Origin: Escherichia phage HY01
Sequence record: NC_027349.1
Length of the DNA: 64,000 nucleotides
Reading direction: 5' to 3' (one strand)
Shown: positions 1,411 to 18,116 of the stretch, piece after piece
Layout: every line of letters starts with the position of its first letter
How positions within the stretch are numbered: position 1 is the stretch's first letter
Notes under the pieces: generated by a model
What the model was told of the DNA's origin: nothing
Database searches by the model: none
The model's input: the letters and a program-made list of their open reading frames with translations, nothing else
Position numbers and translations under genes: made by a program

Positions 1411-1597
1411 TATCTAAAATGTTGAAGTTAAAAGATACAGCCCAGTCAGTGCAGACTGTAACCTTTTTAATACAATTATCTTCAACCTCTAGTGGTTCAA
1501 ACCAGTATTCAATAATTTCTTTATGACCAATATCATCTTTTACTTCACATTCAAAATGCTGACTCATCATAACATTTTTAAATTCATCAAAAGTCAT
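1334..1597 (-). CDS. Hypothetical small protein (87 aa)
   Basis: ORF track; ATG overlaps gene 47 stop (ATGA), suggesting translational coupling. Confidence 0.55.
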   Translation of the reverse strand: MTFDEFKNVMMSQHFECEVKDDIGHKEIIEYWFEPLEVEDNCIKKVTVCTDWAVSFNFNILDNDTPKSLQDMAVSCIKDAYCEVFDI

Positions 1598-2613
1598 TGT
1601 GTTGCCTCTACATATAACTGATTTGCATATTGAATAAGTGCTTCACGGTCAGAATCAGTGATGTCTGGAATTGCATTAATGTATTCTTCCATCAACGTCT
1701 GAAGAGATTGAACTTCAACTTCTTCGCTATCATCTGACTCGACAGAGTTATCAATCTTTGACACAACTCGTAATGAATGCACAACTTTTTCTAGTTCAGA
1801 TTCGAACTTCGTTAGATTTTTGTCTACCTCAGTTACTATAACACGTACTGACAGATTTGTAAAATCTTTATAGTCAATTTTTCCCTTAAATGGATATTGA
1901 ATTCGACGATGCCAGGTAGTGTTGTTTGGAATAAATTCCATTCGTTCTGTTTCTGTATCAAACATCCAGAACCCGCGAGGGTCATTCTCGTCACCTGCAG
2001 TTAGTGTCCATGGTGTCCCAATATATTTGACGTTAGCAGCCTCAGAGATAGTATGGAAGTGACCAGACCACACTTCTTTATAAGTCTTAAGGAAATCAGG
2101 TTCAAGACCGTGAGATTTCATTCCTTTATAAAAATAAAATCCATTCAGTTCCCAGTGACCAACACAAAAGGAAGCAGATGAAGTTTTAATATGTTCAAGA
2201 ATTTCACCGGTATTTTCTTCACACATCCAAGGAATTAAATCAATCAAACATCCGTCAAAATCTACTGTAGTAGGCTTATCATATACTTTAACATTAGGAT
2301 ATTTAGCCAAAAGCTCAGTAGAAGCATTTGGAGTTAAAGTATTTTTAAAGTGCATATCATGGTTTCCTACAATAGTATGTAGGGTAATACCAGCATCATC
2401 AAGCATTTGAACTATTTCACGGGCAAACTCCATAGTTTTATGCGTAATTGCTTTTCGCACATCAAAAATATCACCATATTGAATCCATGTAGTAATTCCG
2501 TTTTTCTTAGAATATTCTATCGCTTGCTTAATTCCATCCAACTGAATGGATTGAATCCACTCATCATCAGCTTTAACGCCTAAATGCCAATCACCTAAAT
2601 TTAAAATTTTCAT
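1594..2613 (-). CDS. 47: Recombination endonuclease subunit gp47 (Mre11/SbcD-like metallophosphatase)
   Basis: 339 aa; N-terminal LNLGDWHLG and GNHD phosphoesterase motifs; same length as T4 gp47; position between a-gt and 46. Confidence 0.93.
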   Translation of the reverse strand: MKILNLGDWHLGVKADDEWIQSIQLDGIKQAIEYSKKNGITTWIQYGDIFDVRKAITHKTMEFAREIVQMLDDAGITLHTIVGNHDMHFKNTLTPNASTELLAKYPNVKVYDKPTTVDFDGCLIDLIPWMCEENTGEILEHIKTSSASFCVGHWELNGFYFYKGMKSHGLEPDFLKTYKEVWSGHFHTISEAANVKYIGTPWTLTAGDENDPRGFWMFDTETERMEFIPNNTTWHRRIQYPFKGKIDYKDFTNLSVRVIVTEVDKNLTKFESELEKVVHSLRVVSKIDNSVESDDSEEVEVQSLQTLMEEYINAIPDITDSDREALIQYANQLYVEATQ

Positions 2614-2773
2614 ATATCAAGAACCGTCATTGAAATGCAAAATAAAATTATTGAAATAAATCCATCTGGAGTACTAAAGAACCCAATCCAACACGCTCTG
2701 GTGAACAAATAAAACGCTAGAAAAAGTATCACATATCCAAGAAATATCATTATATCAAACTCCGTATAAAGCT

Positions 2774-2791
2774 AAAGGGCCGAAGCCCTTT
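2774..2791 (-). terminator. GC-rich tetraloop hairpin (AAGGGC-CGAA-GCCCTT) at 3' end of a-gt
   Basis: Perfect inverted repeat with T-rich flank; member of a hairpin family recurring at gene boundaries in this window. Confidence 0.5.
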
Positions 2792-3992
2792 ATTTTGTAA
2801 TAATGTCAAACTGCTCTTTAAAGCAGAAGCTTGAATCTTGGTGCTGATACAAAAATTCATAAGCTTTTTCACGTTCACGGTCATAAAGAGCTCGGTCAGA
2901 TGACAGTTCTTTAATACGTTCAAATGTTGATTCCATGTCATTTTCATCAAACCAAACGATACCGCTATCATGTGAAATTAATGGAGTATTATCAACACGA
3001 AATTTTAAATTTTCGCCAGTAGATTTCCAAAATACTGGAATTGTTCCGCATGCACCAAGCTCGAGATGAGTGTATTCTAAAGAACGTTGTAGATATTTTT
3101 TATCTAATTTACTCAGCTGATAACCAAATCCGGATTTACTCATGCGTTCAAGCATTTCGCTATTTACATAACGATCGAGAATTTGCGTTGGCAAATTAGG
3201 AGCAATTTTAATTTGGTCTACTTGATGAAGACGATAATACTCGTATGGAATTCCTTTTTCTTTAATAGGAATGAATGCTGGAGAACGTTCCAGACCTTCC
3301 ATAATAGTACTTAGTCCTGCAGGTTTAAGATGTTTTTCGTGAAAATCAAACATCTGATAAAAGCCTTTCCATGTAGTAGTACGACCAATCCAACGGTTGA
3401 TATTCATGTTAATTTCAGAAACATCTTTCCAGTAAGTTGATCGAACCTTCGCAATATCCATAGGAGGCTGAAAGTTATATACAGTCGGTGCTTCTTCAAT
3501 ATCATCAAACAAAGAAACAGTTTCCGGATACCATTCTTTCATTAAAACTTTATTAAAATCACCATTATCAGAATGACTAAAAATAACATCAGCTCGACGA
3601 ACAGTTTCTTCTAATCCCAAATTTCGGCGCAAAGAAAGAGAAGAATGGTCATGTTGATAAACTACAACACGAACTGAAGGTTTAATGTTATCAATAATTT
3701 TTTTATAGTTATTAATAGTGTCTTCTTCGACTGAAGTAGCAGGAACTGAATTGATAATTAGAATATCACAATCATTTACCAGCTTAAGTGTTTTATCGTA
3801 TTCTTTTGCCAATAAAACCGGAATTGAAAATGATTTATAATCATGCGCGCAATTACGGGTAAATGATTTATCTTTAGCATAAACCAAAGTTACTTCATGA
3901 CCATTTTTAATAAACCAATCACGTTGCTCAAGAGAAAATTTAGTTACACCGCAACCTTCAAGACCTCGAGCCATAAAAATGCATACTTTCAT
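2790..3992 (-). CDS. a-gt: DNA alpha-glucosyltransferase (glucosylation of hydroxymethylcytosine DNA)
   Basis: 400 aa; N-terminus M(K/R)(V/I)CIFMARGLEGCGVTKFSLEQRDWFIKNGHEVTLVYAKDKSF and C-terminus match T4 AGT as I recall it; same length. Confidence 0.93.
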   Translation of the reverse strand: MKVCIFMARGLEGCGVTKFSLEQRDWFIKNGHEVTLVYAKDKSFTRNCAHDYKSFSIPVLLAKEYDKTLKLVNDCDILIINSVPATSVEEDTINNYKKIIDNIKPSVRVVVYQHDHSSLSLRRNLGLEETVRRADVIFSHSDNGDFNKVLMKEWYPETVSLFDDIEEAPTVYNFQPPMDIAKVRSTYWKDVSEINMNINRWIGRTTTWKGFYQMFDFHEKHLKPAGLSTIMEGLERSPAFIPIKEKGIPYEYYRLHQVDQIKIAPNLPTQILDRYVNSEMLERMSKSGFGYQLSKLDKKYLQRSLEYTHLELGACGTIPVFWKSTGENLKFRVDNTPLISHDSGIVWFDENDMESTFERIKELSSDRALYDREREKAYEFLYQHQDSSFCFKEQFDIITK

Positions 3993-4045
3993 TTAATATC
4001 CTCATTGTTTTGGTTTATTTTACCAAAAATTTATAAAGCAATATA

Positions 4046-4061
4046 GGAGCCGAAGCTCCTA
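4046..4061 (-). terminator. Tetraloop hairpin AGGAGC-CGAA-GCTCCT
   Basis: Perfect inverted repeat overlapping the stop of the small ORF 4059-4232. Confidence 0.45.
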
Positions 4062-4232
4062 TCCGCACAATACGCCATACAAAGGCTCGTTAGAGCTTCT
4101 AAATTTTATACGCTTATGTGTTATAGTTCCTTCTGCTTTAGCTTTATCATGGGACTCTTTAAAGCGTCTCATCATTTCTACTTTAGAGGAACGAATTTTA
4201 TTATAATCTATTTCAGAAGTCTGGGTGTTCAT
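4059..4232 (-). CDS. Small hypothetical protein (57 aa), below ORF-track length cutoff
   Basis: Manual translation MNTQTSEIDYNKIRSSKVEMMRRFKESHDKAKAEGTITHKRIKFRSSNEPLYGVLCG; fills an otherwise empty gap. Confidence 0.3.
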   Translation of the reverse strand: MNTQTSEIDYNKIRSSKVEMMRRFKESHDKAKAEGTITHKRIKFRSSNEPLYGVLCG

Positions 4233-4235
4233 CTT

Positions 4236-4442
4236 TCACAGTTGCCACCATTTTTTGACTTGATAGGAATCAACCCACACTTTCATATTAGGGTCTGCTC
4301 TTACAATAGGAGGATTAACTTCTTTAATTGAACTATCATGGTATTCTTTTTCAGAAATTTTCACACAAAGATGACCGTTCAAAGATTCAGTAAATCCTGC
4401 ATTAATTTTAAGACGCTTGAATTTTACGTGTGTAAGCATCAA
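4236..4442 (-). CDS. Hypothetical protein (68 aa)
   Basis: ORF track; co-oriented, tightly packed downstream of gene 55. Confidence 0.5.
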   Translation of the reverse strand: MMLTHVKFKRLKINAGFTESLNGHLCVKISEKEYHDSSIKEVNPPIVRADPNMKVWVDSYQVKKWWQL

Positions 4443-4725
4443 TCATATCCTCAATCTGTGATCTAGTAGTCTTCCAAAGAATACTAATGAGTTCATCGTT
4501 ATATGGCTGTTTTAGAATATCCCGACTTTTCTTGATAGCATATTCGTATTGAGCAAAATTATTGTTTTCAGCTGCAATCTGAGCGTGTTTATAAAGACGG
4601 TTCAGTTCGCGTTTATTTTTAGACAATAACTTATTTGCTTTTCTTTCTGCTTCAAGACGGTTCTTTTCTTCAATAGAAGAAATAAGCTTTTCCACTTCAT
4701 CATTAATTTCGGGTTTATCAGTCAT
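4408..4725 (-). CDS. Hypothetical protein (105 aa), charged/helical
   Basis: ORF track; co-oriented. Confidence 0.55.
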   Translation of the reverse strand: MTDKPEINDEVEKLISSIEEKNRLEAERKANKLLSKNKRELNRLYKHAQIAAENNNFAQYEYAIKKSRDILKQPYNDELISILWKTTRSQIEDMIDAYTRKIQAS

Positions 4726-4726
4726 A

Positions 4727-4945
4727 TTATTTCTCTAATATAAAATAAAAATCATCATCTGTTAAATGATACCGATAGTTTAATTCTACACCATTAGATT
4801 TAAAAGCGGTATCATACGGATTTTCTGGATCAATATCAATGTCAAGAGCTAAAACTTCCCTGAGATACATTTTAAGTAAATAGGGAATAGCTTCAACTTC
4901 AGGTATTTCTTCCAAGAATCCGGAGAGGTTAATCGTTAGCCTCAT
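4727..4945 (-). CDS. Hypothetical protein (72 aa)
   Basis: ORF track; immediately downstream of gene 55. Confidence 0.5.
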
Positions 4946-5486
4946 ATAAAAAATCCAAACTAGGAGAATCGTCTACAACACTTTTCTTTTCAGCCCCCGG
5001 TGTTCTATAGGTTGATTCTTCGTAATGCGTCATTTTATCGTAGATGTCTTGAATAAAAGTTTCATCTACTAACGCAACCATATCGTCGTCACGACTGTCA
5101 TAGACATTGTGAACGAAGTAACTATATTTCTTTGCAACTTCCTTACGTTCTTTTTTAATACGTTGGACGAATGCATTAAAACAAGCTTGAGTTATATATG
5201 CATGTGGGTTTTTATATTTCGTTTCATCAAAATTATGAAGTCCCTTAATAGAAGCTTCTATACCATCTGCAATCATTTCTTGTTTCCAAGACTGGGTGTA
5301 TCCTGAAAAGTTGAAACGTTTAGATAAGCCTTCTGCAATAAGCATAATGGCTAATCCGATAGTATCATTCTGACGAACTACTTTATTTGGGTCTTTATTA
5401 TTTGCTAATTCTGTTTTCCAATCAATAATAGCTTGTAAAAGCTCTTTATTGTTTACGTAATTATATTTAGGCTTAGTTTCTGACAT
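4929..5486 (-). CDS. 55: Late-transcription sigma factor gp55
   Basis: Track ORF is 187 aa; start at second Met ([21 protein letters not shown]) gives 185 aa as in T4 gp55. Confidence 0.9.
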
Positions 5487-5566
5487 TTTCACCTCTTAGC
5501 TCAATTCATAGATCTATTATATCATAATATTTGAAGATCTATCTTAAAGCATAGAGGATGAATCAG

Positions 5567-5836
5567 CTATCTAAGTAAACAGTATGCTTGGAATACTTTC
5601 TCCATCATCTTTTTAAATTCATGAATATCTATATAATGACTAGTTAAATCAGCATGATATAAAAAGTCTAAAAACTTTTCATGTGTGCTAACATATTCGC
5701 TTTCATTTAATTCAGAAACATGGCTTTCCCAATATCCAACACCAGTCTTATTTGGGAAAAATGAAATTTTCATGTATTGGTCAACATAGAAAATGCCATA
5801 ATTTTCAATAGTAATAGAAATATTAATAAATTTCAT
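5567..5836 (-). CDS. Hypothetical protein (89 aa)
   Basis: ORF track; ATG overlaps stop of upstream ORF. Confidence 0.5.
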   Translation of the reverse strand: MKFINISITIENYGIFYVDQYMKISFFPNKTGVGYWESHVSELNESEYVSTHEKFLDFLYHADLTSHYIDIHEFKKMMEKVFQAYCLLR

Positions 5837-6048
5837 ACATTCATCAACTTAGCCGCTTCAAGAGCTGCATCTAGTGAATCAAATTGATCGACATATTCAA
5901 TCAGTTTGCCGTAATTAGCATATAACCACCATTGGCTAAATTCATACTCAAGGATAAATCCATTTCCTTCAATTTGAGTTAAACCACTGCCGTTTGTATT
6001 TACTTCATATCCGGCAAGACGTAAATCGTTAATAAGAGCTTCGTTCAT
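5833..6048 (-). CDS. Hypothetical protein (71 aa)
   Basis: ORF track; 2-nt gap to upstream ORF. Confidence 0.5.
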   Translation of the reverse strand: MNEALINDLRLAGYEVNTNGSGLTQIEGNGFILEYEFSQWWLYANYGKLIEYVDQFDSLDAALEAAKLMNV

Positions 6049-6050
6049 AA

Positions 6051-6377
6051 TTATGCCTTAGTAATTTTCAGGTCAGCAAATTTTTTCTTGCGTTGATTTT
6101 TCATACGACGAATAGTTTTATCGGAAATTTCATGTTTTTGATAAGCTTTAGATTCTACGCCAAAAGCTTTAACATCAAATTCTGACAAGATATATTGAAC
6201 TAACAATTCACGGACAGTATTGCGTCCAATTTTCTGATCATTCTGTTTCATCGTCTGATGAAGCTCTTTTTCCCATTTATCCAAAATTTGAGGAGTTACA
6301 ATATCGCCTTTTTCTAGCAGAGAAACTACTTTGTCATATGCGTAAGAATTGATGGCGTTTTTAATTTGAATAGTCAT
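6051..6377 (-). CDS. Hypothetical protein (108 aa), basic C-terminus
   Basis: ORF track. Confidence 0.55.
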   Translation of the reverse strand: MTIQIKNAINSYAYDKVVSLLEKGDIVTPQILDKWEKELHQTMKQNDQKIGRNTVRELLVQYILSEFDVKAFGVESKAYQKHEISDKTIRRMKNQRKKKFADLKITKA

Positions 6378-6415
6378 ACATTATCCTCAATTACGTTAAA
6401 ATTTTATTATCCAAA

Positions 6416-6431
6416 AAGGGCCGAAGCCCTT
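6416..6431 (-). terminator. Tetraloop hairpin AAGGGC-CGAA-GCCCTT
   Basis: Same 16-mer as at 2774-2791; lies between ORFs 6430-6630 and 6051-6377. Confidence 0.45.
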
Positions 6432-6630
6432 AGCTAAACTGTTTGGCGCCCTTCCAGCCTTCATACATCATTGCGGCTGATATTAATATTGCTCCTGCGC
6501 ATTTTGAATATTTGTGATTCCAAAACCAGTTCAGAAAAACTTCGTCATCAATACCTTGGGCTATCATATTTTCAAAGAACTGACGACGAGCTTCGGCAAT
6601 TCGTTGCGATAATTTAGATTCAGGATTCAT
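6430..6630 (-). CDS. Hypothetical protein (66 aa)
   Basis: ORF track. Confidence 0.45.
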   Translation of the reverse strand: MNPESKLSQRIAEARRQFFENMIAQGIDDEVFLNWFWNHKYSKCAGAILISAAMMYEGWKGAKQFS

Positions 6631-6846
6631 TTAAATTTTCCAGTTACCATTTTCATTAATGAATTTAATCCAGTCATTTACTGACCACTTGGTCGTATCG
6701 CCTTTTGGAGCAACATTTAAAGTGTATAATCCTTGTTTAAAAAGCATTCGTTTGATATTCATATTTTCCTCAGCTATAACGATAGCACTCGTTTGATTTA
6801 CGCTTAGCAACTCGTTGAGAAGTATTGTAATCAAAATCATCGTCAA
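6631..6846 (-). CDS. Hypothetical protein (71 aa); true start may be an internal Met near 6762
   Basis: ORF track; overlaps upstream ORF by 77 nt if full length. Confidence 0.4.
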   Translation of the reverse strand: MTMILITILLNELLSVNQTSAIVIAEENMNIKRMLFKQGLYTLNVAPKGDTTKWSVNDWIKFINENGNWKI

Positions 6847-7084
6847 TGTAAACTGATTTTTTCAACTTTCTTACTTCACCACGTAATTGACGATTTAACT
6901 CATCTTTAACTTCTGAATCAATGCCTTTCATTCTACGCCATTTATCAGAGCGAAAAATGTTTTCAACCATATCTTTATGACTTACACCATCAGGAGCTTT
7001 ACGCTTTCCGAAATAGTCATAATCACGAACTTTCAAGTCTTTACGACGATACGTTTTACCCATGGAGTTTAATTTCCTTAGCAA
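6770..7084 (-). CDS. Hypothetical basic protein (104 aa)
   Basis: ORF track; Lys/Arg-rich. Confidence 0.45.
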   Translation of the reverse strand: MLRKLNSMGKTYRRKDLKVRDYDYFGKRKAPDGVSHKDMVENIFRSDKWRRMKGIDSEVKDELNRQLRGEVRKLKKSVYIDDDFDYNTSQRVAKRKSNECYRYS

Positions 7085-7238
7085 CTAAACTAAATACAGC
7101 ACGGTCACAAATCATCTGTTTATGTAACTTGAGTATAAGATAATAAACTTCAAAACCGTTTACATAAGTAACACGAACAACATTACCATTAATAAAATAA
7201 TATTGTCCCTTTTTAATTTCTTTATCAACCACAACCAT
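7056..7238 (-). CDS. Hypothetical protein (60 aa)
   Basis: ORF track; preceded by an early-promoter-like element. Confidence 0.4.
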   Translation of the reverse strand: MVVVDKEIKKGQYYFINGNVVRVTYVNGFEVYYLILKLHKQMICDRAVFSLVAKEIKLHG

Positions 7239-7268
7239 ATCAATTCCTCAAAGGCAATTCATATGTTA

Positions 7269-7298
7269 ATAATACCACAGTTTGAACTTGTTGTAAAC
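7269..7298 (-). promoter_or_regulatory. T4-type early promoter (GTTTAC -35, 18-nt spacer, TATTAT -10) with upstream TTTCACAAAGTT element
   Basis: Minus-strand GTTTAC at 7298-7293 and TATTAT at 7274-7269; same extended motif recurs at least 8 times in the window. Confidence 0.5.
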
Positions 7299-7379
7299 AA
7301 CTTTGTGAAAATTATTTTAGGGAATGATAAGAAGGGAACGATAGCTTAGAATGGTAATATACAGAATGTGAGAAAGAAA

Positions 7380-7393
7380 GGCCCAAAGGGCCC
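7380..7393 (-). terminator. Hairpin GGCCC-AAAG-GGCCC
   Basis: Perfect inverted repeat 3' of nrdH. Confidence 0.4.
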
Positions 7394-7396
7394 GTC

Positions 7397-7705
7397 TTAG
7401 TCTTCTATGATATCTCTATCATATCCAAGTGAAATGAGAGTTTCTTTGAAGTGTTTAATGTTCTTTTGTCTAGAATCATTAATGAAAATGACTGGATAAC
7501 GAATGTTAAGAGATGTGAATCCAGCACGTTTAGCAAGAGATACAATCAGTGGACGATCATACTCAATCTTACCATTATTTGTAAGAACTTTATAGAAAGT
7601 AAAAGGAGCATTGAGCTCCTTTAGAAGTTTTGTAACTGATTGACATCCAGGACAACGACCTACTTCATCTGGAATTCCATAGACTTCAATCTTGTTTTGT
7701 TTCAC
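7397..7705 (-). CDS. nrdH: Glutaredoxin-like protein NrdH
   Basis: 102 aa; CPGC redox motif near N-terminus; thioredoxin-fold size; adjacent to nrdG and nrdD. Confidence 0.75.
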   Translation of the reverse strand: MKQNKIEVYGIPDEVGRCPGCQSVTKLLKELNAPFTFYKVLTNNGKIEYDRPLIVSLAKRAGFTSLNIRYPVIFINDSRQKNIKHFKETLISLGYDRDIIED

Positions 7706-7707
7706 AA

Positions 7708-7944
7708 CTATTCCTTACTAAGAGCAGCATTCAGCTTGTTAGTAATTTTATCCAGACGCTCATTGAACTCGCTAGAAGATAAGCCTTTTTCTGGAGAAAT
7801 TAAGCTAATCACGAAAAATATAGCAATAAAAGGAATAAGAAAAATAGCACCAACTGCCATAAACAAAAAGAACGTTACAGTTGTAAGAAAATCAGCTAAA
7901 CCTTTACGAAATTTATACATATTTACCCTTAATTGATTAACCAA
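7708..7944 (-). CDS. Small membrane protein (78 aa)
   Basis: Hydrophobic helix VTFFLFMAVGAIFLIPFIAIFFVISLI. Confidence 0.5.
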   Translation of the reverse strand: MVNQLRVNMYKFRKGLADFLTTVTFFLFMAVGAIFLIPFIAIFFVISLISPEKGLSSSEFNERLDKITNKLNAALSKE

Positions 7945-8034
7945 GCATTGATAAGTACTAAACTATACTGCGAATAAAATTCTGGACCAAAATGAAAAAT
8001 CATATCATTTATAGTATCAATAATATAATTCAGT

Positions 8035-8505
8035 TTAATCATGTTTCCACACCCCATCGGTATTTGACCAAAGTCGCTGATTATCTGAACCTCGCCACAG
8101 CTTTTTGGTCGGAAGATTTTTCTCATACTTCCCATCAATAATAACATCAACATATTTAAGCATTTCTAGTTGTTTAATATCTTCAAACTTATATCCTGTC
8201 CACAACCAAATGCTTTTATTCGGATAAAGATTTTTTACCGTTTGAACAATGCAATGAACATCATCTCGGTTATCAGGATAAAGAGGGTCTCCTCCAGTTA
8301 TAGTTAATCCTTCTATATAATCATTATTCAAACATTCAATTAATTGTTCTAGTGTTTCACCAGTAAATGGAACGCCATTTCTAGCATTCCATGTTGATTT
8401 ATTATAACACCCTTCACATTTATGCAAACACCCCGTAACGAAAAGAACGACCCTGCATCCAGGGCCATTCACAAAATCACAGGGATAAAATCTATCGTAA
8501 TTCAT
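8035..8505 (-). CDS. nrdG: Anaerobic ribonucleotide reductase activating protein (radical SAM)
   Basis: 156 aa; CxxxCxxC motif (CLHKCEGC); immediately downstream of nrdD with 4-nt overlap. Confidence 0.9.
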   Translation of the reverse strand: MNYDRFYPCDFVNGPGCRVVLFVTGCLHKCEGCYNKSTWNARNGVPFTGETLEQLIECLNNDYIEGLTITGGDPLYPDNRDDVHCIVQTVKNLYPNKSIWLWTGYKFEDIKQLEMLKYVDVIIDGKYEKNLPTKKLWRGSDNQRLWSNTDGVWKHD

Positions 8506-10319
8506 TGGTGTTTAACCCTATGCATGATTTCTTTATTTTTGCCAAGATTAAATCCGCGTTCGTTCGGATTTCCCAAATAGCCACATGTTCTTCTTATTGT
8601 GTTCATCTTTTTAGGATCAGTTTCTCCACAAATAGAACAAACAAATCCGTTTTCAGTAGGAGTCATTTCATGGGTACTTCCACACGTAAAACATTTATCT
8701 ACTGGCATATTAACACCAAAATAATCTAAATGTTGTGCAGCATAATCCCATACAGCCTCAAGGCCTTTTAAGTTATTTTTCATATCAGGAAGTTCAACAT
8801 AAGAAATGTGACCACCTGTCGCAATGAAATGATACGGTGCTTCGCGAGAAATCTTTTCAAATGGAGTAATATTTTCTTCTACTGAAACGTGGAAACTGTT
8901 AGTGTACCAGCCTTTATCAGTAACATCTTTTACACTTCCATATTTTTCGGTATCAAGTTTACAGAAGCGATAGCACAGGTTTTCAGCAGGAGTAGAATAC
9001 AAACTAAAAGCAAATCCGGTTCTTTCTGTCCATTGTTTAAGATGAGTATTCATTTTAGTTAAAATTTCTTGCCCAATATCACGACCGACAAGAATATTCA
9101 ATTCGTGAATACCAATGTATCCTAGGGACACTGAACTTCTACCGTTTTTAAATAACTCAATTATATCGTCATCAGGTTTAAGACGAACCCCGAATGCACC
9201 TTCTTGGTAAAGAATAGGAGCAACAGTAGCTTTAACTCCTTTTAAGGAACTAATTCTACACATCAATGCTTCAAAACATAAATCCATTCGCTCATTGAAC
9301 AATTCGGCAAATTTCTGTTCATTGAACTGTGTTCCAATATAAGAATCTAGCGCAATGCGAGGAAGATTCAGTGTTACAACACCAAGATTATTACGTCCAT
9401 CAAGAATTTCATTACCAGTCGAATCTTTCCATACACTCAAGAAACTACGACAACCCATTGGAGAAACAGGAATAGATGAACCGGTGATAGCTTTATTGTT
9501 CTTAGCCGAAATGATGTCAGGATACATTCTTTTACTTGCACACTCTAGAGCAAGCTGCTTAATATCATAGTTCGGATCGTCTTTATAAAGATTAACACCT
9601 TCTTCAACGAACATAACAAGTTTAGGGAAAATAGGAGTTATCCCGTCACGACCAAGGCCTTTAATACGATTTTTCAGAATTGCTTTCTGAATCATTCGTT
9701 CAGTCCAGTCAGTTCCCGTACCAAATGTAATTGTTACAAAAGGCGTTTGTCCGTTTGAACTAAAGAGAGTATTTACTTCATATTCATAAGCTTGGAATGC
9801 ATCGTATACGTCTTTTTCTGTTTTAGATTGGGCATAATTCAACGCATCAGCGATTTGCCATTTTTCTGCATCCTCAATATGTTTTGCATAGGTGCGTTTA
9901 ACATAAGGAGAAAGTACTTTATCTACATTCGCAAAAGTCGTTCCACCGTATTGATGGGAAGCAACCTGTGCAGTAATTTGTGCCATAATTGCAGTAGCAA
10001 CGCCGATTGATTTAGGAGTTTCAATCTGTGCATTACCGAGCTTAAATCCGTTCTCAAGCATTCCTTTTAAATCTACTAAACAGCAATTAGTAAATGGAAG
10101 AGCAGGGGAATAATCAATATCATGGAAATGAATAATTCCGCTTTCATGCGCTTTCATAATAAAAGACGGGACCATATTTTTGGCAATGTGTTTAGACACA
10201 ATACCAGCCATAAGGTCCCGTTGAGTTGGAAAAACACGAGAATCTTTATTAGCATTCTCGTTTAAAAGGTCTTTATTAGTTTTATGAATCAATCCTTCAA
10301 TTTCTTTTTCAATTGTCAT
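8502..10319 (-). CDS. nrdD: Anaerobic ribonucleoside-triphosphate reductase (glycyl radical enzyme), uninterrupted
   Basis: 605 aa continuous ORF; C-terminal Zn ribbon CFTCGSTHE...CSICG and glycyl-radical motif RTCGYLG. Confidence 0.95.
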   Translation of the reverse strand: MTIEKEIEGLIHKTNKDLLNENANKDSRVFPTQRDLMAGIVSKHIAKNMVPSFIMKAHESGIIHFHDIDYSPALPFTNCCLVDLKGMLENGFKLGNAQIETPKSIGVATAIMAQITAQVASHQYGGTTFANVDKVLSPYVKRTYAKHIEDAEKWQIADALNYAQSKTEKDVYDAFQAYEYEVNTLFSSNGQTPFVTITFGTGTDWTERMIQKAILKNRIKGLGRDGITPIFPKLVMFVEEGVNLYKDDPNYDIKQLALECASKRMYPDIISAKNNKAITGSSIPVSPMGCRSFLSVWKDSTGNEILDGRNNLGVVTLNLPRIALDSYIGTQFNEQKFAELFNERMDLCFEALMCRISSLKGVKATVAPILYQEGAFGVRLKPDDDIIELFKNGRSSVSLGYIGIHELNILVGRDIGQEILTKMNTHLKQWTERTGFAFSLYSTPAENLCYRFCKLDTEKYGSVKDVTDKGWYTNSFHVSVEENITPFEKISREAPYHFIATGGHISYVELPDMKNNLKGLEAVWDYAAQHLDYFGVNMPVDKCFTCGSTHEMTPTENGFVCSICGETDPKKMNTIRRTCGYLGNPNERGFNLGKNKEIMHRVKHQ

Positions 10320-10789
10320 TTTAAACTCTTTCTAAGCTGCTTCTTAAATGAAGCTATTAATTGTGTTTTAGTGTCAGATTCATTATATTCAAATCCTCTT
10401 TGAAGCATCTCAGCCATCATTTCCTCTTTTCCTAAACGAGAAAATTCCTTTGATTTATCTCCAACGAAGTTAGGGTGAATATTATTTTGGGTGTAATCGG
10501 ATTTTAAATAAGTAAGTAAATTTTCTAACCATTCAAGATAATCAACACCTTGTCCCTTTAAGCCAGAACGATTAAATTTATGCTTCATTTGACCTTCTGC
10601 AGCATTACAGAGATTACACAGCAACCCACGTACCTTTCCTGCTTTTGGTCCATTTAATTCATGGTCATGGTCAAGGTGATTAGCTTGAACATCAGGATTT
10701 AGTTCTCGTTGGCAAATTAAGCATTTACCGTTTTGTGCATTATAAAATTTTTGTTTTTCTTCTTTGTACAATTTGCCAGTCAATAACAT
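10316..10789 (-). CDS. 49: Endonuclease VII (Holliday junction resolvase) gp49
   Basis: 157 aa; Cys cluster CLICQ...CNLCN and HLDHDH motif; length as in T4 gp49; 4-nt overlap with nrdD. Confidence 0.92.
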   Translation of the reverse strand: MLLTGKLYKEEKQKFYNAQNGKCLICQRELNPDVQANHLDHDHELNGPKAGKVRGLLCNLCNAAEGQMKHKFNRSGLKGQGVDYLEWLENLLTYLKSDYTQNNIHPNFVGDKSKEFSRLGKEEMMAEMLQRGFEYNESDTKTQLIASFKKQLRKSLK

Positions 10790-10795
10790 AATAAA

Positions 10796-10826
10796 ACCCT
10801 TACCTTGAATAGATAAGGGTATTTAT
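10796..10826 (-). promoter_or_regulatory. Hairpin (ACCCTTA...TAAGGGT) with U-run immediately upstream of gene 49 start
   Basis: Inverted repeat within 10 nt of the gene 49 ATG; could be a terminator for upstream transcripts or a structure affecting gene 49 translation. Confidence 0.35.
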
Positions 10827-10831
10827 TATTT

Positions 10832-11008
10832 TCAAGTATTGTAAAACATTCGATGCAATCGCTTATATTGTCGAATCATCTTTTTAGTAGGACGAGAATA
10901 AGTTCCTATACAAGTGGTCATATTAGGGTCAGTAGGACTTCCTTTAATAAAAAGTTTCCAAACCTTACCACCATTTAACTTTTCAGTATAAACCAATTCA
11001 GTTTTCAT
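10832..11008 (-). CDS. Small hypothetical protein (58 aa), below ORF-track cutoff
   Basis: Manual translation MKTELVYTEKLNGGKVWKLFIKGSPTDPNMTTCIGTYSRPTKKMIRQYKRLHRMFYNT; ATG overlaps upstream stop (TAATG). Confidence 0.3.
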   Translation of the reverse strand: MKTELVYTEKLNGGKVWKLFIKGSPTDPNMTTCIGTYSRPTKKMIRQYKRLHRMFYNT

Positions 11009-11472
11009 TAAAATGCTCGGTCAGAAAAAGAAATTTGAGTTTCAAGCCATTCAATATATTCTGCCGCAGCTTGCATCAAATTTCCTTCATAGCCATCGTT
11101 GTTTTCTTGCGCAGCTAATTTAGCTAATGCATATGAAATGCGTTCACCTTGAAAAGCGGCTTTAGGTTTATGAATAGCTTGATCAACTCGTTCTACAACT
11201 TCTTCAATTTCGCCATTTTCTACTGATTCAGTATTCCATAAGCACCAATACGTAATTGGCTTATCGTAGATGTTAATAATCTTTCCATCAGAAAGTTCAA
11301 TTTCAATAATTCCAGTATCAGGTTCTATATCATCTTCGCATTCTTTTGCGAGTTCACGAACTTTAAAGACAGTACCTGCACTAAGTTCTGGCCAATAATT
11401 ACATAGCCCTTTATCAGCACGATTAATTCTAAACCACTTATCTACTGTAATCATGTCCCATCTCCATATCAA
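11008..11472 (-). CDS. Hypothetical acidic protein (154 aa); in the position where T4 carries pin
   Basis: ORF track; assignment to pin is by synteny and size only. Confidence 0.5.
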   Translation of the reverse strand: MIWRWDMITVDKWFRINRADKGLCNYWPELSAGTVFKVRELAKECEDDIEPDTGIIEIELSDGKIINIYDKPITYWCLWNTESVENGEIEEVVERVDQAIHKPKAAFQGERISYALAKLAAQENNDGYEGNLMQAAAEYIEWLETQISFSDRAF

Positions 11473-11577
11473 TTAAGTCATTTATCGTAGGTTCATTATA
11501 TACTGTTTCTTCATCAGTGTAAACCGGTTCTTCCGGCTCTGGCTCTACTGTTTCCCATCTAGCCGCCCACCAGGGTT

Positions 11578-11898
11578 TTATAGCGTAATCCATTCTCGTA
11601 TTGTCTGAATTACTACACGTTCACGGGGCTCGACTAGTTCAACAGTCGGAACTGCATAATACCAGTCAGAATGGTAAGAACCTGAGCGAGTTTCATTTAC
11701 AGACACATGAACGTTATGTTTTGGACTAAAATAAACGCACTGCCGATATTGGCATTTGCCGTCTTGTACCCAATCTTCTATTTCGATAGGTTTAAGATAA
11801 TCCGAAAAATCGAAATCATAATTTTCTGAAAATGCATCATGGTCTTCGATGATTTCACTCAGAACTGCATCAACATCTAATTTATTTTCAGTATTCAT
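11578..11898 (-). CDS. Hypothetical protein (106 aa)
   Basis: ORF track. Confidence 0.5.
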   Translation of the reverse strand: MNTENKLDVDAVLSEIIEDHDAFSENYDFDFSDYLKPIEIEDWVQDGKCQYRQCVYFSPKHNVHVSVNETRSGSYHSDWYYAVPTVELVEPRERVVIQTIREWITL

Positions 11899-11908
11899 TT
11901 GTCACCAC

Positions 11909-12118
11909 TTAATTTCGCAATTTATTAAGTTCTTCATAATCAATCCAGGATTCTAATCCTGATGGCAAATCAGATTCAATTTCCCAAAGAAGTTCTTCAA
12001 TTTTCTGAAGACGATCTAGTTCTTCAGCAGAAATAGTAACCATTGACGGAGTTCTTGATGCACTAATATCATAAATCATATTTACCCCAGTTTGACCATA
12101 CAATCGCCATATTTCCAT
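11909..12118 (-). CDS. Hypothetical protein (69 aa)
   Basis: ORF track. Confidence 0.45.
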   Translation of the reverse strand: MEIWRLYGQTGVNMIYDISASRTPSMVTISAEELDRLQKIEELLWEIESDLPSGLESWIDYEELNKLRN

Positions 12119-12297
12119 TTAGAAATAGACTTTTCACCGTTAGAATAATAAACTTCGAGTTTAGCGCGGCCATTTTTAATTTGAATAACCTTTGCTGTCA
12201 TCAAAGTTCCATACCCATAGTAAACTGCAACCCCATCACCTACATATACCGCGCTTCCGCGGTAGTCATGGATATAATCAGTTCCTTCGAGCATCAT
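12082..12297 (-). CDS. Hypothetical protein (71 aa)
   Basis: ORF track; downstream of nrdC with 4-nt overlap. Confidence 0.45.
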   Translation of the reverse strand: MMLEGTDYIHDYRGSAVYVGDGVAVYYGYGTLMTAKVIQIKNGRAKLEVYYSNGEKSISKWKYGDCMVKLG

Positions 12298-12557
12298 TTA
12301 AAGTATTCCCGCAATTGGTCAAATCCACCAATATGACTTCCATCAGGAGCAAATACTTGTGGCATCGTCAAACCAATTTGAGTATCACGACCTAGTTTCG
12401 TCAGAAGCTCAGCGATTTTCTCATCATCAAAAACACCTTTTTCCGGCATAATGTTGATAAATTCAAACGGCTGTTTCTTCACAGTCAAAAGACGTTTTGC
12501 ATTATCGCAATACACACATTTATGAATGTTGCTATCATAACCATATACTTTAAACAT
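12294..12557 (-). CDS. nrdC: Phage thioredoxin/glutaredoxin NrdC
   Basis: 87 aa; CVYC active site; length as T4 NrdC. Confidence 0.9.
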   Translation of the reverse strand: MFKVYGYDSNIHKCVYCDNAKRLLTVKKQPFEFINIMPEKGVFDDEKIAELLTKLGRDTQIGLTMPQVFAPDGSHIGGFDQLREYFK

Positions 12558-12558
12558 A

Positions 12559-12816
12559 TTATTCCTTAATTCCTAGTACTTGTTTAAAAGTCTCGTCGTA
12601 ATCAAGACTTTGACCTGTTTGTTCTTTATGTTTGTATATAATATCACTTACTTCTGATAGCATATTTTTATATGAACGAGTTAAAGCAGATTTAAGCACG
12701 CTGTATCTATCAGGAAATTTACCATGTTCATTATAATACGCTATTGCTAATTCACGGACTGCCTTTTCAGCAATCTCCATATATTCTTTACGCTTTTTCA
12801 TTTTCTTCTCGGTCAA
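12559..12816 (-). CDS. Hypothetical protein (85 aa)
   Basis: ORF track. Confidence 0.5.
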
Positions 12817-13105
12817 ATCGGTGTTTGCAATGACGACATTTATAACGAAGAATACTAGTCTGCCAATGAACTAATTGTACCTGTTCAGTACCGCATTCAG
12901 GACAACTAGGAACGTTTTTAGAAGCCCTTTCACGACGTTCAACCATAACCATAATGGCATCCCAAGCTGGAGGTTTAAAGTCTAAATCATCGCAACCATG
13001 AATCTTTCCACGCATTTCTAAATCGTCTTCTTCACCAGCCATAATAATTTTAATTAGACTGGAATTACTTGAAGCTGCAATATCTTCTAATAGACGCTTT
13101 TTCAT
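12788..13105 (-). CDS. Zinc-ribbon-containing small protein (105 aa)
   Basis: CPECG...CRHCKH (CxxC-x17-CxxC) at C-terminus. Confidence 0.5.
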
Positions 13106-14031
13106 TTCAATACCTCAATAGCATTACGTAAACCATTTGCTTTTGCATTAAGAGCTTTTAACAATTTAGTGTGTTCGGCAATCTGAGCTTCAACTTCAAC
13201 TAGTCGAGATTTGAGGTATTCACGTTCTTCGCTCAAGTTATCAACCTTTTCTACTTTAGGTTCTTTTACAACTGGCTTATATGTATTAGGGTTCTTCAGT
13301 TTAATTAGAATGCGTGAACTGTATAACATTGAACCATTATCTTCGGTTTCGTCATACATTTCTACTACGTCCATGATTTTTAACATCATGCGGAGTTTAT
13401 AAGATAACGAACGAATAGTTTTGTTGTGCTTATTAATTTCTCTAGAGTTCATGGTGCCGAGATTACGTGAGTAATAATAAGGAACCTGGATATTAATTAA
13501 TACTGATGAACCACCTGGCTTATGTGTTACTTCATCAGCAATAACCCAATCCTTAACATGAACTGTATTTGTACGGTCATCGCCCGCGGTAAATAGTTTG
13601 CGAGCATGCTTAAAAAGCATATTCACTTGGTCATTGAATTGACAAGTAAATTTATCAGCAAATTTAGTTTCAGGAATGGTAGATAACCAATCAGCCAAAT
13701 GGGTCTTTTTAACATCGTTAACAATAGTAAATTCAACCAAATCAGTTATAGATGTCTCAGATTTAATAAAGCTCGGCTTCATAAAGTTTTTAATGTTATC
13801 GCGAGCTACAGTAGAAGATAACATACGAGAACGTTTAAACCATTGAAGCAAATTGCCTAATGAATGAGAATAGGCGTTCTGAGTATCTTTACAGATATGA
13901 TTTTCCTGCCCAACATATTGAAGGAAATCACGAAGAATATTATTGATTACTGCTCTGTGCCCGATTTGATAATTACGGTGTTTAGTAATAAGACTGTCAA
14001 AATAATCAATATAATGTTTACGAGTTTTCAT
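13102..14031 (-). CDS. Hypothetical protein (309 aa) with C-terminal coiled coil; first of four tandem genes of similar architecture
   Basis: C-terminal heptad-like segment ...[44 protein letters not shown]. Confidence 0.6.
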   Translation of the reverse strand: MKTRKHYIDYFDSLITKHRNYQIGHRAVINNILRDFLQYVGQENHICKDTQNAYSHSLGNLLQWFKRSRMLSSTVARDNIKNFMKPSFIKSETSITDLVEFTIVNDVKKTHLADWLSTIPETKFADKFTCQFNDQVNMLFKHARKLFTAGDDRTNTVHVKDWVIADEVTHKPGGSSVLINIQVPYYYSRNLGTMNSREINKHNKTIRSLSYKLRMMLKIMDVVEMYDETEDNGSMLYSSRILIKLKNPNTYKPVVKEPKVEKVDNLSEEREYLKSRLVEVEAQIAEHTKLLKALNAKANGLRNAIEVLK

Positions 14032-14083
14032 GTTCTTCTCACTTGGTTAATGATTTATACTCCGAGCCATCCTTGGCTTTAAA

Positions 14084-15085
14084 TTACTTAATTAACTGTA
14101 AAGCTTGTTCAAGACGATCCAGGCGATTAACAGATTCTTCCCAAATCCTTTTAGCCTGCTCATATTCTTTCTGCGCTTTATTAGAAATTTCTAGAGCTTC
14201 TTTATAAGCTTTTTCTAATGCAATAACTTCTGGACGAATTTCTACCGATTCAGGTGAATCATCAAGATTATCCATTAGTTCCTCAAGGGTAGTTTCTTCT
14301 TTAGGGGTATTCACAATTTCCTCACATTTTTGTTGGTAAATTTCTTTATCAGTAAGTGAGTACGCACATTTCACTTCACGAAGACTAACTACAATTTTAT
14401 ATCCTTCCCAACCGCACATATTCTTAAAAGGATAAGTATGAATATTTTCTACTGTTTCCATACAAAGTAATGCGGTTTCTAATTGACGAGTTATAGTGCT
14501 AGCAATTGAGAAAAATTTATTAATATTCTTTTGGTTAGTTTCTGGTGTAAAAAATCCATAATTCACAAAAATAGATACTTTATTTTTATCAAGTTCATAT
14601 TCTTTTATGATAATCATATCAGAAGCCAAAGGATGAATTTGACGATAATCGCCATAACATAATTTAGAAGCTGATTTTAGAATCTGTCCTTTGAAAAGTC
14701 TGAAATTACTAATCCAACGACGAGTAAAAATATTCTCAGGGTCTTCTTTATTATTAAGATGATAAGAATTAACATCACCGAACCAATTATATCCTACTAC
14801 ATCTTTAGTTCGTTTAATTTCTTTCCCAAATTTACCAAGAATATCCCGATTAACCAAATATGAAAGAAGACGAGACTCTTTAAAGGTTTTCTTGATAACA
14901 TCTTTATCTACACGGCTAGAAATTTTACGAATTTCATGAATAAATTTAGTAGAAGAAACAATACTTGCATCAACACTATTGAGCCATTGATTGATAATAG
15001 AAAGAACGATATTTTGGCCAAACATCGGTATAGCTTTATCATCAATAACGCTATTAAATGATTTGATATATTCGTCACGAGTCAT
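14084..15085 (-). CDS. Hypothetical protein (about 333 aa) with C-terminal coiled coil
   Basis: Track ORF extends to 15136, but a GAGGAG site precedes the Met at 15085 (MTRDEYIKSF) and a promoter-like element overlaps the longer N-terminus. Confidence 0.6.
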   Translation of the reverse strand: MTRDEYIKSFNSVIDDKAIPMFGQNIVLSIINQWLNSVDASIVSSTKFIHEIRKISSRVDKDVIKKTFKESRLLSYLVNRDILGKFGKEIKRTKDVVGYNWFGDVNSYHLNNKEDPENIFTRRWISNFRLFKGQILKSASKLCYGDYRQIHPLASDMIIIKEYELDKNKVSIFVNYGFFTPETNQKNINKFFSIASTITRQLETALLCMETVENIHTYPFKNMCGWEGYKIVVSLREVKCAYSLTDKEIYQQKCEEIVNTPKEETTLEELMDNLDDSPESVEIRPEVIALEKAYKEALEISNKAQKEYEQAKRIWEESVNRLDRLEQALQLIK

Positions 15086-15113
15086 ATTAATCTCCTCAGT
15101 AGAAAGTAAGAAC

Positions 15114-15143
15114 ATTATACCACATCCTTGTGGCAAAGTAAAC
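15114..15143 (-). promoter_or_regulatory. T4-type early promoter-like element (GTTTAC...TATAAT)
   Basis: Minus-strand GTTTAC at 15143-15138, TATAAT at 15119-15114, 18-nt spacer. Confidence 0.4.
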
Positions 15144-16159
15144 TAGTTTAGTGCATTTAGTGCATTGTTCAGTTTAGAACGTTGCTTCGTAAGATTTTTG
15201 ACTTTTTCTTGAGCTTTTTCTAGCATCTTTTCAGCTTCTAACACTTCATTAGTTGCTTTAACTAGTTCATCATCTACTGCTTTAAGAGAATTCTCAATCG
15301 CATCTGCATGCCATTTTTCAACAGGTTTAAGACTCGGATTTTCAACAGGAAGAAAATTCACTTTATTGAATTTCCATGCATCCTTATTACCTGAACTATA
15401 CATCCAAAATTTAGGATCGTTTGATGAGTAATTGGATAAATTTAAATTTAAGTTATCTTGCACTTCTTGCTTTTTCTCTTGCGTGACTTCATCCTTTCTC
15501 AAAAAATCGTATTTAAATGAAACGATCATATCAAGTTCATATGTTGTTGTGTCTAATAAACGAGGTAAAATCTTAGACTGAACAGCGGCAACAACATCCA
15601 TATACTTAAATGCTTCTGTCAACTGCGATTTAAGGCATTCGCAAATTGAAAGAGAATTTTTTGTATTAGGTTTAAAGCTAATTCGTGCAGTTCTGTTATT
15701 TTCTTTTAATGGTCTTACTTCCATCTGAAGAGTATAACCATCAAATTTCAAGTTCTTTAAGTTAATATCAGAACCTTTTAATCGACTCGCAGTTGATAAA
15801 ATTTGCTTTAATTGTCTACGGAACAGAGCAATAAATCTCCATTCAATACGATAATGATTTGGATTGAAAAATCCAGATGATAAATCGACCTTACTTTGAC
15901 CAACGCCTTGAACAAATAAAGGATTTTTATAATCAATAGTTTTACAGAAATCGGTGAGTTGCTCACGAGCAGTCATTTGTGTAATATATCCCGCTTTACT
16001 AAAATTACGCACCCATTCACTGCTATTCGTATACTTAAAGTGATGAATAACACGATTAACTTTATCAGGGTCTAAATTATTTTCACACAAAAATGTCATA
16101 ACATCACAAGTATAACTGGCATTACGAACCATATCTTCAATTTGAGAACGAGTTTTCAT
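15143..16159 (-). CDS. Hypothetical protein (338 aa) with C-terminal coiled coil
   Basis: C-terminus ...ENSLKAVDDELVKATNEVLEAEKMLEKAQEKVKNLTKQRSKLNNALNALN. Confidence 0.6.
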   Translation of the reverse strand: MKTRSQIEDMVRNASYTCDVMTFLCENNLDPDKVNRVIHHFKYTNSSEWVRNFSKAGYITQMTAREQLTDFCKTIDYKNPLFVQGVGQSKVDLSSGFFNPNHYRIEWRFIALFRRQLKQILSTASRLKGSDINLKNLKFDGYTLQMEVRPLKENNRTARISFKPNTKNSLSICECLKSQLTEAFKYMDVVAAVQSKILPRLLDTTTYELDMIVSFKYDFLRKDEVTQEKKQEVQDNLNLNLSNYSSNDPKFWMYSSGNKDAWKFNKVNFLPVENPSLKPVEKWHADAIENSLKAVDDELVKATNEVLEAEKMLEKAQEKVKNLTKQRSKLNNALNALN

Positions 16160-16167
16160 AGTGTTCC

Positions 16168-17473: not shown

Positions 17474-17528
17474 AATAATCTCAATTAAAAGGGCTTAGAA
17501 CCATTATACCATCCTTGGTATAAAGCGG

Positions 17529-18056: not shown

Positions 18057-18084
18057 TTTGTGTTCCTCCGTAGTTGATAGTTGT

Positions 18085-18114: not shown

Positions 18115-18116
18115 CA

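Follow-up and report, generated by a model that had tools for sequence, protein, structure and literature searches.

Does the absence of T4's mobile elements from the nrdD region of this phage mark an unusual lineage, or is it the ordinary state of the locus? We examined this question in the 64-kb window, that is, the whole stretch of DNA analysed, to which nrdD belongs. The window is 100% identical at the nucleotide level, along its whole length, to phage PEC04 (KR233165.1; Tequatrovirus hy01). It is the reverse complement of positions 37294 to 1 and then 167552 to 140847 of that record, and spans the record start. We conclude, with a probability of about 0.92, that the region is the ordinary, uninvaded nrdD/nrdG and nrdC block of this published, T2-like Tequatrovirus. 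The element-free layout is real, ordinary and already known: the introns and free-standing endonucleases of T4 are variably present, and mostly absent, among T-even phages, a distribution recognised since the late 1980s and reviewed in PMC2988022.

An uninterrupted nrdD gene with an empty intron site

The gene and the position of interest within it are as follows.

8502–10319, minus strand: nrdD, large subunit of the class III (anaerobic) ribonucleotide reductase, a single uninterrupted 605-aa ORF
9781–9782, minus strand: site at which T4 nrdD has its group I intron, empty here, GCTTATGAAT being followed directly by ATGAAGTAAATACTCTCTTTAG on the gene strand

NrdD matches the Pfam NRDD profile (PF13597, E = 3.1e-171; residues 21–604 against profile positions 1–562 of 562) and the Gly_radical domain (PF01228, E = 1.2e-25). 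The protein ends in RRTCGYLGNPNERGFNLGKNKEIMHRVKHQ, immediately before the stop codon, and its translation shows the RxCGY glycyl-radical motif, in the form RRTCGYLG, about 26 residues from the C-terminus. The full-length NRDD profile, the glycyl-radical domain and the adjacent radical-SAM activase NrdG place the protein in class III. The ORF list, Pfam and the translation agree with the sequence-only reading, which had described nrdD as one continuous 605-aa frame with a glycyl-radical motif.

The spliced nrdD of T4 is 95.5% identical to that of PEC04 in nucleotides and 98.8% in amino acids. The T4 intron, 1033 nt long, lies between nrdD codons 179 and 180 and carries I-TevII; the I-TevIII that had been named for it resides in nrdB instead. 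We placed the corresponding junction in PEC04 from the reading frame and the splice-site rules of group I introns, and a blastn comparison of the window with T4 returned a T4-only segment of about 1035 nt at this site. An Rfam search for the group I intron (RF00028) gave no match at the gathering threshold in the whole window, while the T4 nrdD intron, used as a positive control, scored 105 bits. A tblastn search for I-TevII likewise found no match in PEC04. From −40 to +45 of the insertion site (85 nt), PEC04 is identical to T2.

The nrdD–nrdG junction and the nrdG–nrdH interval

Downstream of nrdD lie the following genes.

8035–8505, minus strand: nrdG, radical-SAM activase of NrdD (Pfam Fer4_12, E = 2e-48, and Radical_SAM)
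7929–8042, minus strand: conserved 37-aa ORF between nrdG and 55.8, PEC04_0056 (phrog_3350, E = 4e-25)
7708–7920, minus strand: gp55.8 homologue, a 70-aa single-pass membrane protein (phrog_1930; Kyte–Doolittle 19-residue maximum 2.9)
7397–7705, minus strand: nrdH, glutaredoxin (PEC04 annotation; collinear with T4 nrdH)

The start of nrdG overlaps the stop of nrdD by 4 nt (8502–8505), and this overlap is the empty mobC site: T4 has 601 extra nucleotides, containing mobC, exactly at the nrdD–nrdG junction, and PEC04 is without them (blastn). The start of mobC in T4 duplicates the first 21 nt of nrdG. Because the nrdD stop overlaps the nrdG start, the two subunits are probably translationally coupled, judging from the gene arrangement. 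The sequence-only reading had put mobC between nrdG and nrdH, which is the wrong interval. Table 1 of PMC2988022 gives mobC at nrdG/nrdD, together with I-TevII in nrdD and mobD at nrdC.11/mobD.1.

What does occupy the nrdG–nrdH interval is a membrane ORF, as had been noted, with a product 100% identical to T4 gp55.8. The length of 78 aa proposed for it requires an upstream TTG (7944), whereas the ATG gives 70 aa; nor is it the only ORF there, as the 37-aa ORF shares the interval. In T4, gp55.8 alone is annotated between nrdG and nrdH, and frame comparison showed the counterpart of PEC04_0056 to be frameshifted in the T4 reference sequence.

The mobB, mobD and segC positions

Three further positions at which T4 carries endonuclease genes fall within the window.

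3984–4007, minus strand: empty mobB site at the a-gt/a-gt.2 junction, where T4 has 861 extra nt (blastn; T4 annotation) and T2 has the same layout
20229–21242, minus strand: nrdC.11, nucleotidyltransferase, next to the T4 mobD position on its downstream side (annotation; blastn against T4)
21239–21700, minus strand: 153-aa multi-pass membrane protein, part of the T4 mobD position (phrog_944 "membrane protein", E = 1e-49; hydropathy maximum 3.1)
21703–22224, minus strand: 173-aa mobD.1 paralogue with T4_y05I N- and C-terminal domains, second gene at the T4 mobD position (PF24449, E = 3e-33; PF24448, E = 1.5e-23; phrog_1502)
22231–22788, minus strand: orthologue of T4 mobD.1, 185 aa, GTG start (ORF list; phrog_1502, E = 1e-79; collinear with T4 from 57258 onward)
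45833–45838, plus strand: empty segC/5.3 site between 5.1 and 5.4, where T4 has 557 extra nt (blastn; T4 annotation)

In the blastn comparison of the window with T4, the stretches present in T4 alone correspond exactly to five elements: mobB, mobC, the intron, mobD and segC. The intron, mobC and mobD are indeed missing relative to T4, as had been claimed, and so are mobB and segC, which had not been listed. For absences of this kind a comparison with chance is not meaningful; the absence itself is shown, as are the signatures of insertion and replacement on the T4 side.

At the mobD position T4 shows a two-gene replacement, not a simple insertion. PEC04 has two intact genes at this point; of these T4 retains, upstream of mobD, just a stub of the y05I paralogue, its first 19 nt. 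Set beside the intact pair in PEC04, this stub points to T4 as the genome in which the replacement took place. Under this reading, PEC04 would have kept the membrane-protein gene and the second mobD.1-like gene, and T4 would have lost both when mobD arrived. Pfam found no significant domain in the 153-aa ORF, whose product is no endonuclease. That this ORF and its 173-aa neighbour are another mobile element was considered and ruled out: they encode a membrane protein and a mobD.1 paralogue and occur in 421 records at 92–97% identity, and on these sequence features the cassette looks vertically inherited.

Element-free alleles predominate among phage records

We counted the alternative alleles in 50,697 phage records. 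The nrdD junction is contiguous in 619 of the 692 records that match it and contains the T4 intron in 25; the remaining matches, about 48, have neither 80% query coverage in one place nor a full-length T4 intron, and may be partial matches or partial records in some cases and other nrdD insertions in others. The direct nrdD–nrdG junction occurs in 582 records and mobC in 32, and the two-gene cassette of PEC04 at the mobD position in 421 records and mobD in 47. The rarity of the elements outside T4 is a direct count, although sampling skews these numbers, T4 laboratory stocks and therapeutic E. coli phages having been sequenced many times over. All copies of the intron, mobC and mobD share at least 99% identity, which fits recent spread, whereas the PEC04-type alleles at the mobD position show the 92–97% identity expected for vertically inherited DNA.

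From the record frequencies and the junction remnants we infer a polarity in which T4 is derived and PEC04 ancestral. In PEC04, nrdD is a normal continuous gene, and the sites of the I-TevII intron, mobB, mobC, mobD and segC are simply empty; in such a history T4 and a few close relatives would have acquired these selfish elements recently, by homing. The contrast between PEC04 and T4 would then exist because T4 and a few relatives gained the elements, not because the PEC04 lineage is special. The direction and the recency of these gains and replacements are both suggested by the same evidence.

Alternatively, an ancestor of PEC04 could have possessed the nrdD intron, mobC and mobD and lost them secondarily, through precise deletion or through recombination with element-free phages. 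Co-infecting T-even phages recombine frequently, and loss through replacement by the alleles of an element-free phage keeps a small probability. Models of the homing-endonuclease life cycle also predict degeneration and loss after fixation (PMC2988022). However, neither the nrdD–nrdG junction nor the intron site bears a footprint of loss, and their form is identical to that of T2; the mobD position has two intact genes in PEC04 and a 19-nt stub of one of them in T4; and the elements are rare and nearly uniform, whereas the empty or alternative alleles are common and diverged. We therefore regard secondary loss as very improbable, and favour recent gain in T4 and its few relatives.

Exon flanks of the intron and homing

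Between −2 and +20 of the insertion site PEC04 and T4 differ by seven clustered changes, all of them synonymous, so that the protein is unaltered. The cut site of I-TevII, reported to lie 13–15 nt downstream of the insertion site, would fall inside this cluster. One could suppose from this that the changes make PEC04-type nrdD uncleavable and its lineage resistant, since they cover the presumed cut region and no intron-less record has T4-type flanks: such flanks were found in 0 of the 425 records with a continuous nrdD junction, the best full-length identity being 94.9% over 100 nt. The PEC04 site, however, equals the T2 site over 85 nt, and T2 is said to be the classical intron-less recipient, the nrdD (sunY) intron reportedly homing into it with high efficiency (Quirk et al. 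1989). A simpler explanation of the T4-specific flanks is a co-conversion tract carried along with the intron (PMC2988022). Because the intron site is identical to that of T2, we reject target-site immunity as the main reading and consider it even less probable than secondary loss.

PEC04 presents the same naive I-TevII target as T2. It is a plausible recipient for homing, to judge by the 85 nt that the two share, but for the same reason would add nothing beyond T2. A bolder idea, which we put forward tentatively and think rather unlikely to hold in full, is that precise loss of the T4 nrdD intron may never occur in natural populations, and that the intron may always move with its own exon tract. 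If this were true, every PEC04-type allele would count as a naive target, universally so, the signature in the flanks could serve as a marker to date and trace each homing event across Tequatrovirus genomes, and the mobD locus, with its 19-nt stub of the displaced gene, would provide a like marker.

Homing endonuclease genes in the window and in the genome

One homing endonuclease gene was recognised in the window.

37296–37904, minus strand: GIY-YIG Seg protein, 202 aa, the sole homing-endonuclease gene in the window (Pfam GIY-YIG and NUMOD3; phrog_314, E = 2e-54)

A tblastn search with all 15 T4 endonucleases (E up to 0.1) revealed no HNH gene in the window. Nor did a Mob-family HMM detect HNH among 1158 six-frame window fragments of at least 25 aa (best E = 0.22); as a control, it recovered all T4 mob genes at E = 5e-17 or better. 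With the Seg HMM included, the tRNA-cluster Seg gene alone scored in the window. The sequence-only reading was therefore right to report no HNH ORF between nrdC and rI, and the result extends to the entire 64 kb. A tblastn match of mobC inside gene 47 (E = 0.026) and HMM matches at E = 0.2 or worse were taken as noise.

The Seg gene had been read as segB. It is a GIY-YIG gene (PF01541, E = 5.5e-6, 27.0 bits against a cut-off of 22.6; Seg HMM, E = 1.6e-48), but not a segB orthologue: it occupies the stretch between tRNA-Gly and tRNA-Ser, not the interval from tRNA-Ile to tRNA-Arg that holds segB in T4, and its product is 83% identical to SegB over residues 1–117 of 202 only, being near-identical to about residue 94. 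The protein combines a SegB-like predicted catalytic domain with a C-terminal part unrelated to SegB. The GenBank annotation of KR233165 names this tRNA-cluster gene "segD"; it also leaves out the mobD.1 orthologue (22231–22788) and gives segG in truncated form.

Genome-wide, tblastn and the Mob and Seg HMMs recognised 4 homing endonuclease genes in PEC04 and 15 in T4. SegG is 99.5% identical between the two. PEC04 has an intact mobA and, outside the window, an HNH gene that cuts nrdA into two ORFs, both with short non-NrdA tails. T4 has neither gene in that form, and the nrdA-splitting gene, one of the 4 in PEC04, occurs in only 33 phage records. "Uninvaded" accordingly applies to the nrdD and mob loci treated here, not to the whole genome, because PEC04 has HNH genes elsewhere. 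The proposal of a distinct, homing-endonuclease-poor lineage stands in that PEC04 has fewer such genes than T4, although its poverty is not uniform. It fails as to distinctness, since the element-free state is that of the majority, T2 has the same layout and it is T4 that is the outlier according to the review PMC2988022. With empty-site alleles outnumbering occupied ones at all three loci (619 to 25, 582 to 32 and 421 to 47 records), the complement of PEC04 is not clearly below that of typical relatives.

We see very little chance that a degenerate endonuclease, or one of another family, was missed in the region: our HMMs were limited to Mob-type HNH and Seg-type GIY-YIG, and five PEC04-specific ORFs are without a Pfam domain (19616–20101, 21239–21700, 34488–35003, 35563–36036 and 36421–36771), but when all window ORFs that T4 lacks were compared with Pfam and PHROGs, no nuclease family was returned (the matches being to a membrane protein, y05I, a zinc-binding domain, an Alt-like C-terminal fragment and families of unknown function), and each of the remaining window ORFs is collinear with, and homologous to, a named T4 gene with a non-endonuclease product.

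Comparison with known systems

The significance of the locus is small beyond housekeeping, the genome being already in GenBank; what is gained is the correction of two facts about T4 (I-TevII in the nrdD intron and mobC at nrdD/nrdG) and a quantification of element frequencies in the phage database.

The split nrdA of PEC04 resembles that of the Aeromonas phage Aeh1, in which mobE splits the gene (PMC3045599, discussed in PMC2988022). Aeh1 belongs to another phage genus, and the likeness concerns the split itself. The nrdD/nrdG intergenic locus is variably occupied among T-even phages (PMC2988022). In phage U5, segH replaces mobC there (Sandegren et al. 2005, as cited in PMC2988022), whereas in PEC04 the junction is a 4-nt overlap free of mobC and of any seg gene.

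T4 (NC_000866) is collinear with the window at 90–98% nucleotide identity. Within the same span it has mobB, mobC, the nrdD intron with I-TevII, mobD and segC in addition, and is without the pair of membrane-protein and y05I-paralogue genes and without the 161-aa ORF (19616–20101). T2 (NC_054931), by contrast, shares the layout of PEC04 in the region from a-gt to rI: a-gt and a-gt.2 are direct neighbours, mobB being absent; nrdD, 96.5% identical overall to that of PEC04, runs uninterrupted for 1818 nt into an overlap with nrdG, without mobC; and mobD is absent, with the extra 161-aa ORF present between nrdC.10 and nrdC.11. The ORFs of the mobD position and mobD.1, however, are annotated in T2 as shorter fragments.

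Identity of the window

Searching window positions 1-22000 and 47001-64000 by megablast returned one 100% match each, to Escherichia phage PEC04 (KR233165.1, Tequatrovirus hy01). Reverse-complementing positions 37294..1 of that record followed by 167552..140847 reproduces the window, which is therefore a circular permutation of the published genome.

An uninterrupted nrdD and the elements absent beside it

The following genes lie in and around nrdD.

8502-10319, minus strand: nrdD, a single ORF of 605 aa
8035-8505: nrdG, with Fer4_12 and Radical_SAM matches, overlapping the nrdD stop by 4 nt
7929-8042, between nrdG and nrdH: 37-aa ORF (phrog_3350), conserved and intact in the window
between nrdG and nrdH: gp55.8 homologue, 70 aa from ATG, 100% identical to T4

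The nrdD product covers the entire Pfam NRDD profile (E 3e-171), also matches the glycine-radical domain and ends in ...RRTCGYLGNPNERGFNLGKNKEIMHRVKHQ, confirming the sequence-only reading of an uninterrupted gene with a glycyl-radical end. That reading had placed just a 78-aa membrane ORF between nrdG and nrdH; the gp55.8 homologue is indeed there, but it reaches 78 aa solely when an upstream TTG is taken as the start, and the 37-aa ORF accompanies it. As in PEC04, gp55.8 is the sole annotated gene of this interval in T4. In the T4 reference, where this stretch is unannotated, a frameshift has apparently divided the phrog_3350 ORF between two reading frames.

We located the T4 elements from the T4 RefSeq annotation (NC_000866), in agreement with Table 1 of Edgell et al. 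2010 (PMC2988022), and the T4-only segments by blastn of the window against T4.

T4 elements and the corresponding window positions

mobB, between a-gt and a-gt.2 in T4: 861 nt extra in T4; window 3983/4008
mobC, between nrdD and nrdG in T4: 601 nt extra; window 8505
nrdD intron, encoding I-TevII: ~1035-nt extra segment (1033-nt intron); window 9782/9781
segC (between 5.1 and 5.3 in T4) plus 5.3: 557 nt extra; window about 45835
mobD, between nrdC.11 and mobD.1 in T4: 808 nt in T4 versus 962 nt in PEC04

The T4-only segments coincide with the elements. The absence of the nrdD intron, mobC and mobD had been rightly noted; two details given for T4 were mistaken: I-TevIII, assigned to the nrdD intron, sits in nrdB, and mobC does not lie between nrdG and nrdH (T4 annotation and PMC2988022).

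Introns and endonucleases in the window and the whole genome

An Rfam search at gathering thresholds detected no group I intron in the 64-kb window, its sole matches being nine tRNAs; the same search recovered the T4 nrdD intron at 105 bits. Likewise, no HNH gene was found anywhere in the window by tblastn with all 15 T4 endonucleases or by a Mob-family HMM against 1158 six-frame fragments (best E 0.22), an HMM that recovered every T4 mob gene; the claim that no HNH ORF lies between nrdC and rI stands. Across PEC04, HMM and tblastn searches identified four endonuclease genes versus 15 in T4, and ORFs without a T4 homologue showed no nuclease domain.

Endonuclease genes of PEC04

window 37296-37904: GIY-YIG Seg gene, sole endonuclease gene in the window, inside the tRNA cluster (36788-38190)
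between genes 39 and 60: mobA, intact
PEC04 record 90576-91205, outside the window: segG, full length, 99.5% identical to T4 SegG
PEC04 record 96297-99465, outside the window: split nrdA, 477-aa and 329-aa ORFs around a 236-aa HNH gene

The Seg gene, flanked by tRNA-Gly and tRNA-Ser, had been called segB; it is a GIY-YIG gene, but a chimeric one: near-identity with T4 SegB is confined to residues 1-94, and the C-terminal DNA-binding part bears no relation to that protein. The surrounding cluster includes Asn, Tyr and Met tRNAs and lacks T4's Ile and Pro. Although full length, segG is entered in the record as a 'putative homing endonuclease' truncated to 153 aa. The HNH gene inside nrdA encodes I-HmuI NUMOD-like and HNH domains; the break in nrdA follows the position corresponding to residue 449 of T4 NrdA, and the fragments have non-NrdA tails of 28 and 26 aa. 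This element occurs in only 33 phage records. Since it has four endonuclease genes to T4's 15, PEC04 is poor in T4's elements, yet not devoid of such elements.

The intron insertion site

When the reading frame is used to set the junctions, together with the usual U / terminal-G rule, T4 nrdD has a 538-nt exon 1 and a 1033-nt intron. PEC04 differs from spliced T4 by 7 synonymous changes between -2 and +20, leaving the peptide the same, and every T4-specific change is synonymous and falls in a cluster at most 40 nt from the insertion site (window 9700-9830). A 100-nt T4 spliced-junction query matched 425 records continuously with a top identity of 94.9%, so T4-type flanks were found in none of these intron-less phages. 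This result fits co-conversion of flanking exons in homing (PMC2988022). PEC04 and T2 (NC_054931) are identical across -40..+45 of the site, and as a homing recipient PEC04 would present the same target as T2.

Junctions at the mob positions

21239-21700: membrane protein, 153 aa, within PEC04's 962 nt at the mobD position
21703-22224: mobD.1 paralogue, 173 aa (Pfam T4_y05I_N and T4_y05I_C), also within the 962 nt
22231-22788: mobD.1 orthologue, 185 aa, GTG start (phrog_1502, E 1e-79), inside a 730-nt gap without annotation in the GenBank record

A 19-nt stub, the start of the 173-aa paralogue's ORF, is all that T4 keeps of it, upstream of mobD, and 421 records carry the two-gene cassette; mobD therefore probably displaced two genes, a replacement rather than a simple insertion. 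Most Tequatroviruses (these 421 records) have the membrane-protein gene and second mobD.1 (y05I) paralogue here. In T4 the opening 21 nt of nrdG, which specify MNYDRIY, recur at the start of mobC (window 8485-8505; T4 42896-42916 and 43518-43538). As MNYxxIY opens all Mob proteins, the insertion junction lies inside mob/nrdG 5'-end microhomology. Marked by the 19-nt remnant and this duplication, T4 would represent the derived state.

A 161-aa ORF (19616-20101), present in T2 and not in T4, matches just the C-terminal part of an Alt-like ADP-ribosyltransferase PHROG (phrog_832, E 2e-23) and has GC-rich hairpins on either side (19587-19603 and 20208-20225). A conserved ~90-nt cassette, AAAAATTTTTTCACAAAAC(A/T)GTTTACA ... 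TGGTACTATACAACTATCAACTACTGATAC(A/G)G, then TTGGAGAAT(A/G)AAATG, occurs at 19483-19604 and 35313-35418 and at no fewer than 6 T4 intergenic sites, with 6 extra nt before TTGGAGAAT(A/G)AAATG in 2 of 5 aligned copies. It is promoter-like, contains a ribosome-binding site and is similar to promoter-early stem-loop modules known from T4-type phages.

Discussion

Records of each state in the phage collection of 50,697 records

nrdD intron: 25 full-length T4-type records; empty junction spanned in one piece in 619 of 692
mobC: 32 T4-type; direct nrdD-nrdG junction in 582
mobD: 47 T4-type; two-gene cassette in 421

Full-length intron carriers are mostly T4 stocks, RB55/59, PST, fPS-2, G8 and a few others. 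Every occurrence of the elements shows at least 99% identity, against 92-97% for the alternative alleles; we therefore suggest that they spread recently by horizontal transfer, in contrast to host DNA that diverges vertically. The proposed endonuclease-poor lineage is poor relative to T4 but not distinct, given the 619, 582 and 421 records of the PEC04-type states and T2, whose a-gt to rI region has the same element-free layout as PEC04.

The observation is real. Edgell et al. 2010 already describe T4 as the outlier. Different seg and mob genes hit nrdD and nrdG in different phages (PMC2988022), and our finding repeats this known literature for one genome already published; nothing in it is new in kind. 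The split nrdA of PEC04, with its non-NrdA tails, resembles the 'gene in pieces' case of Aeh1 mobE.
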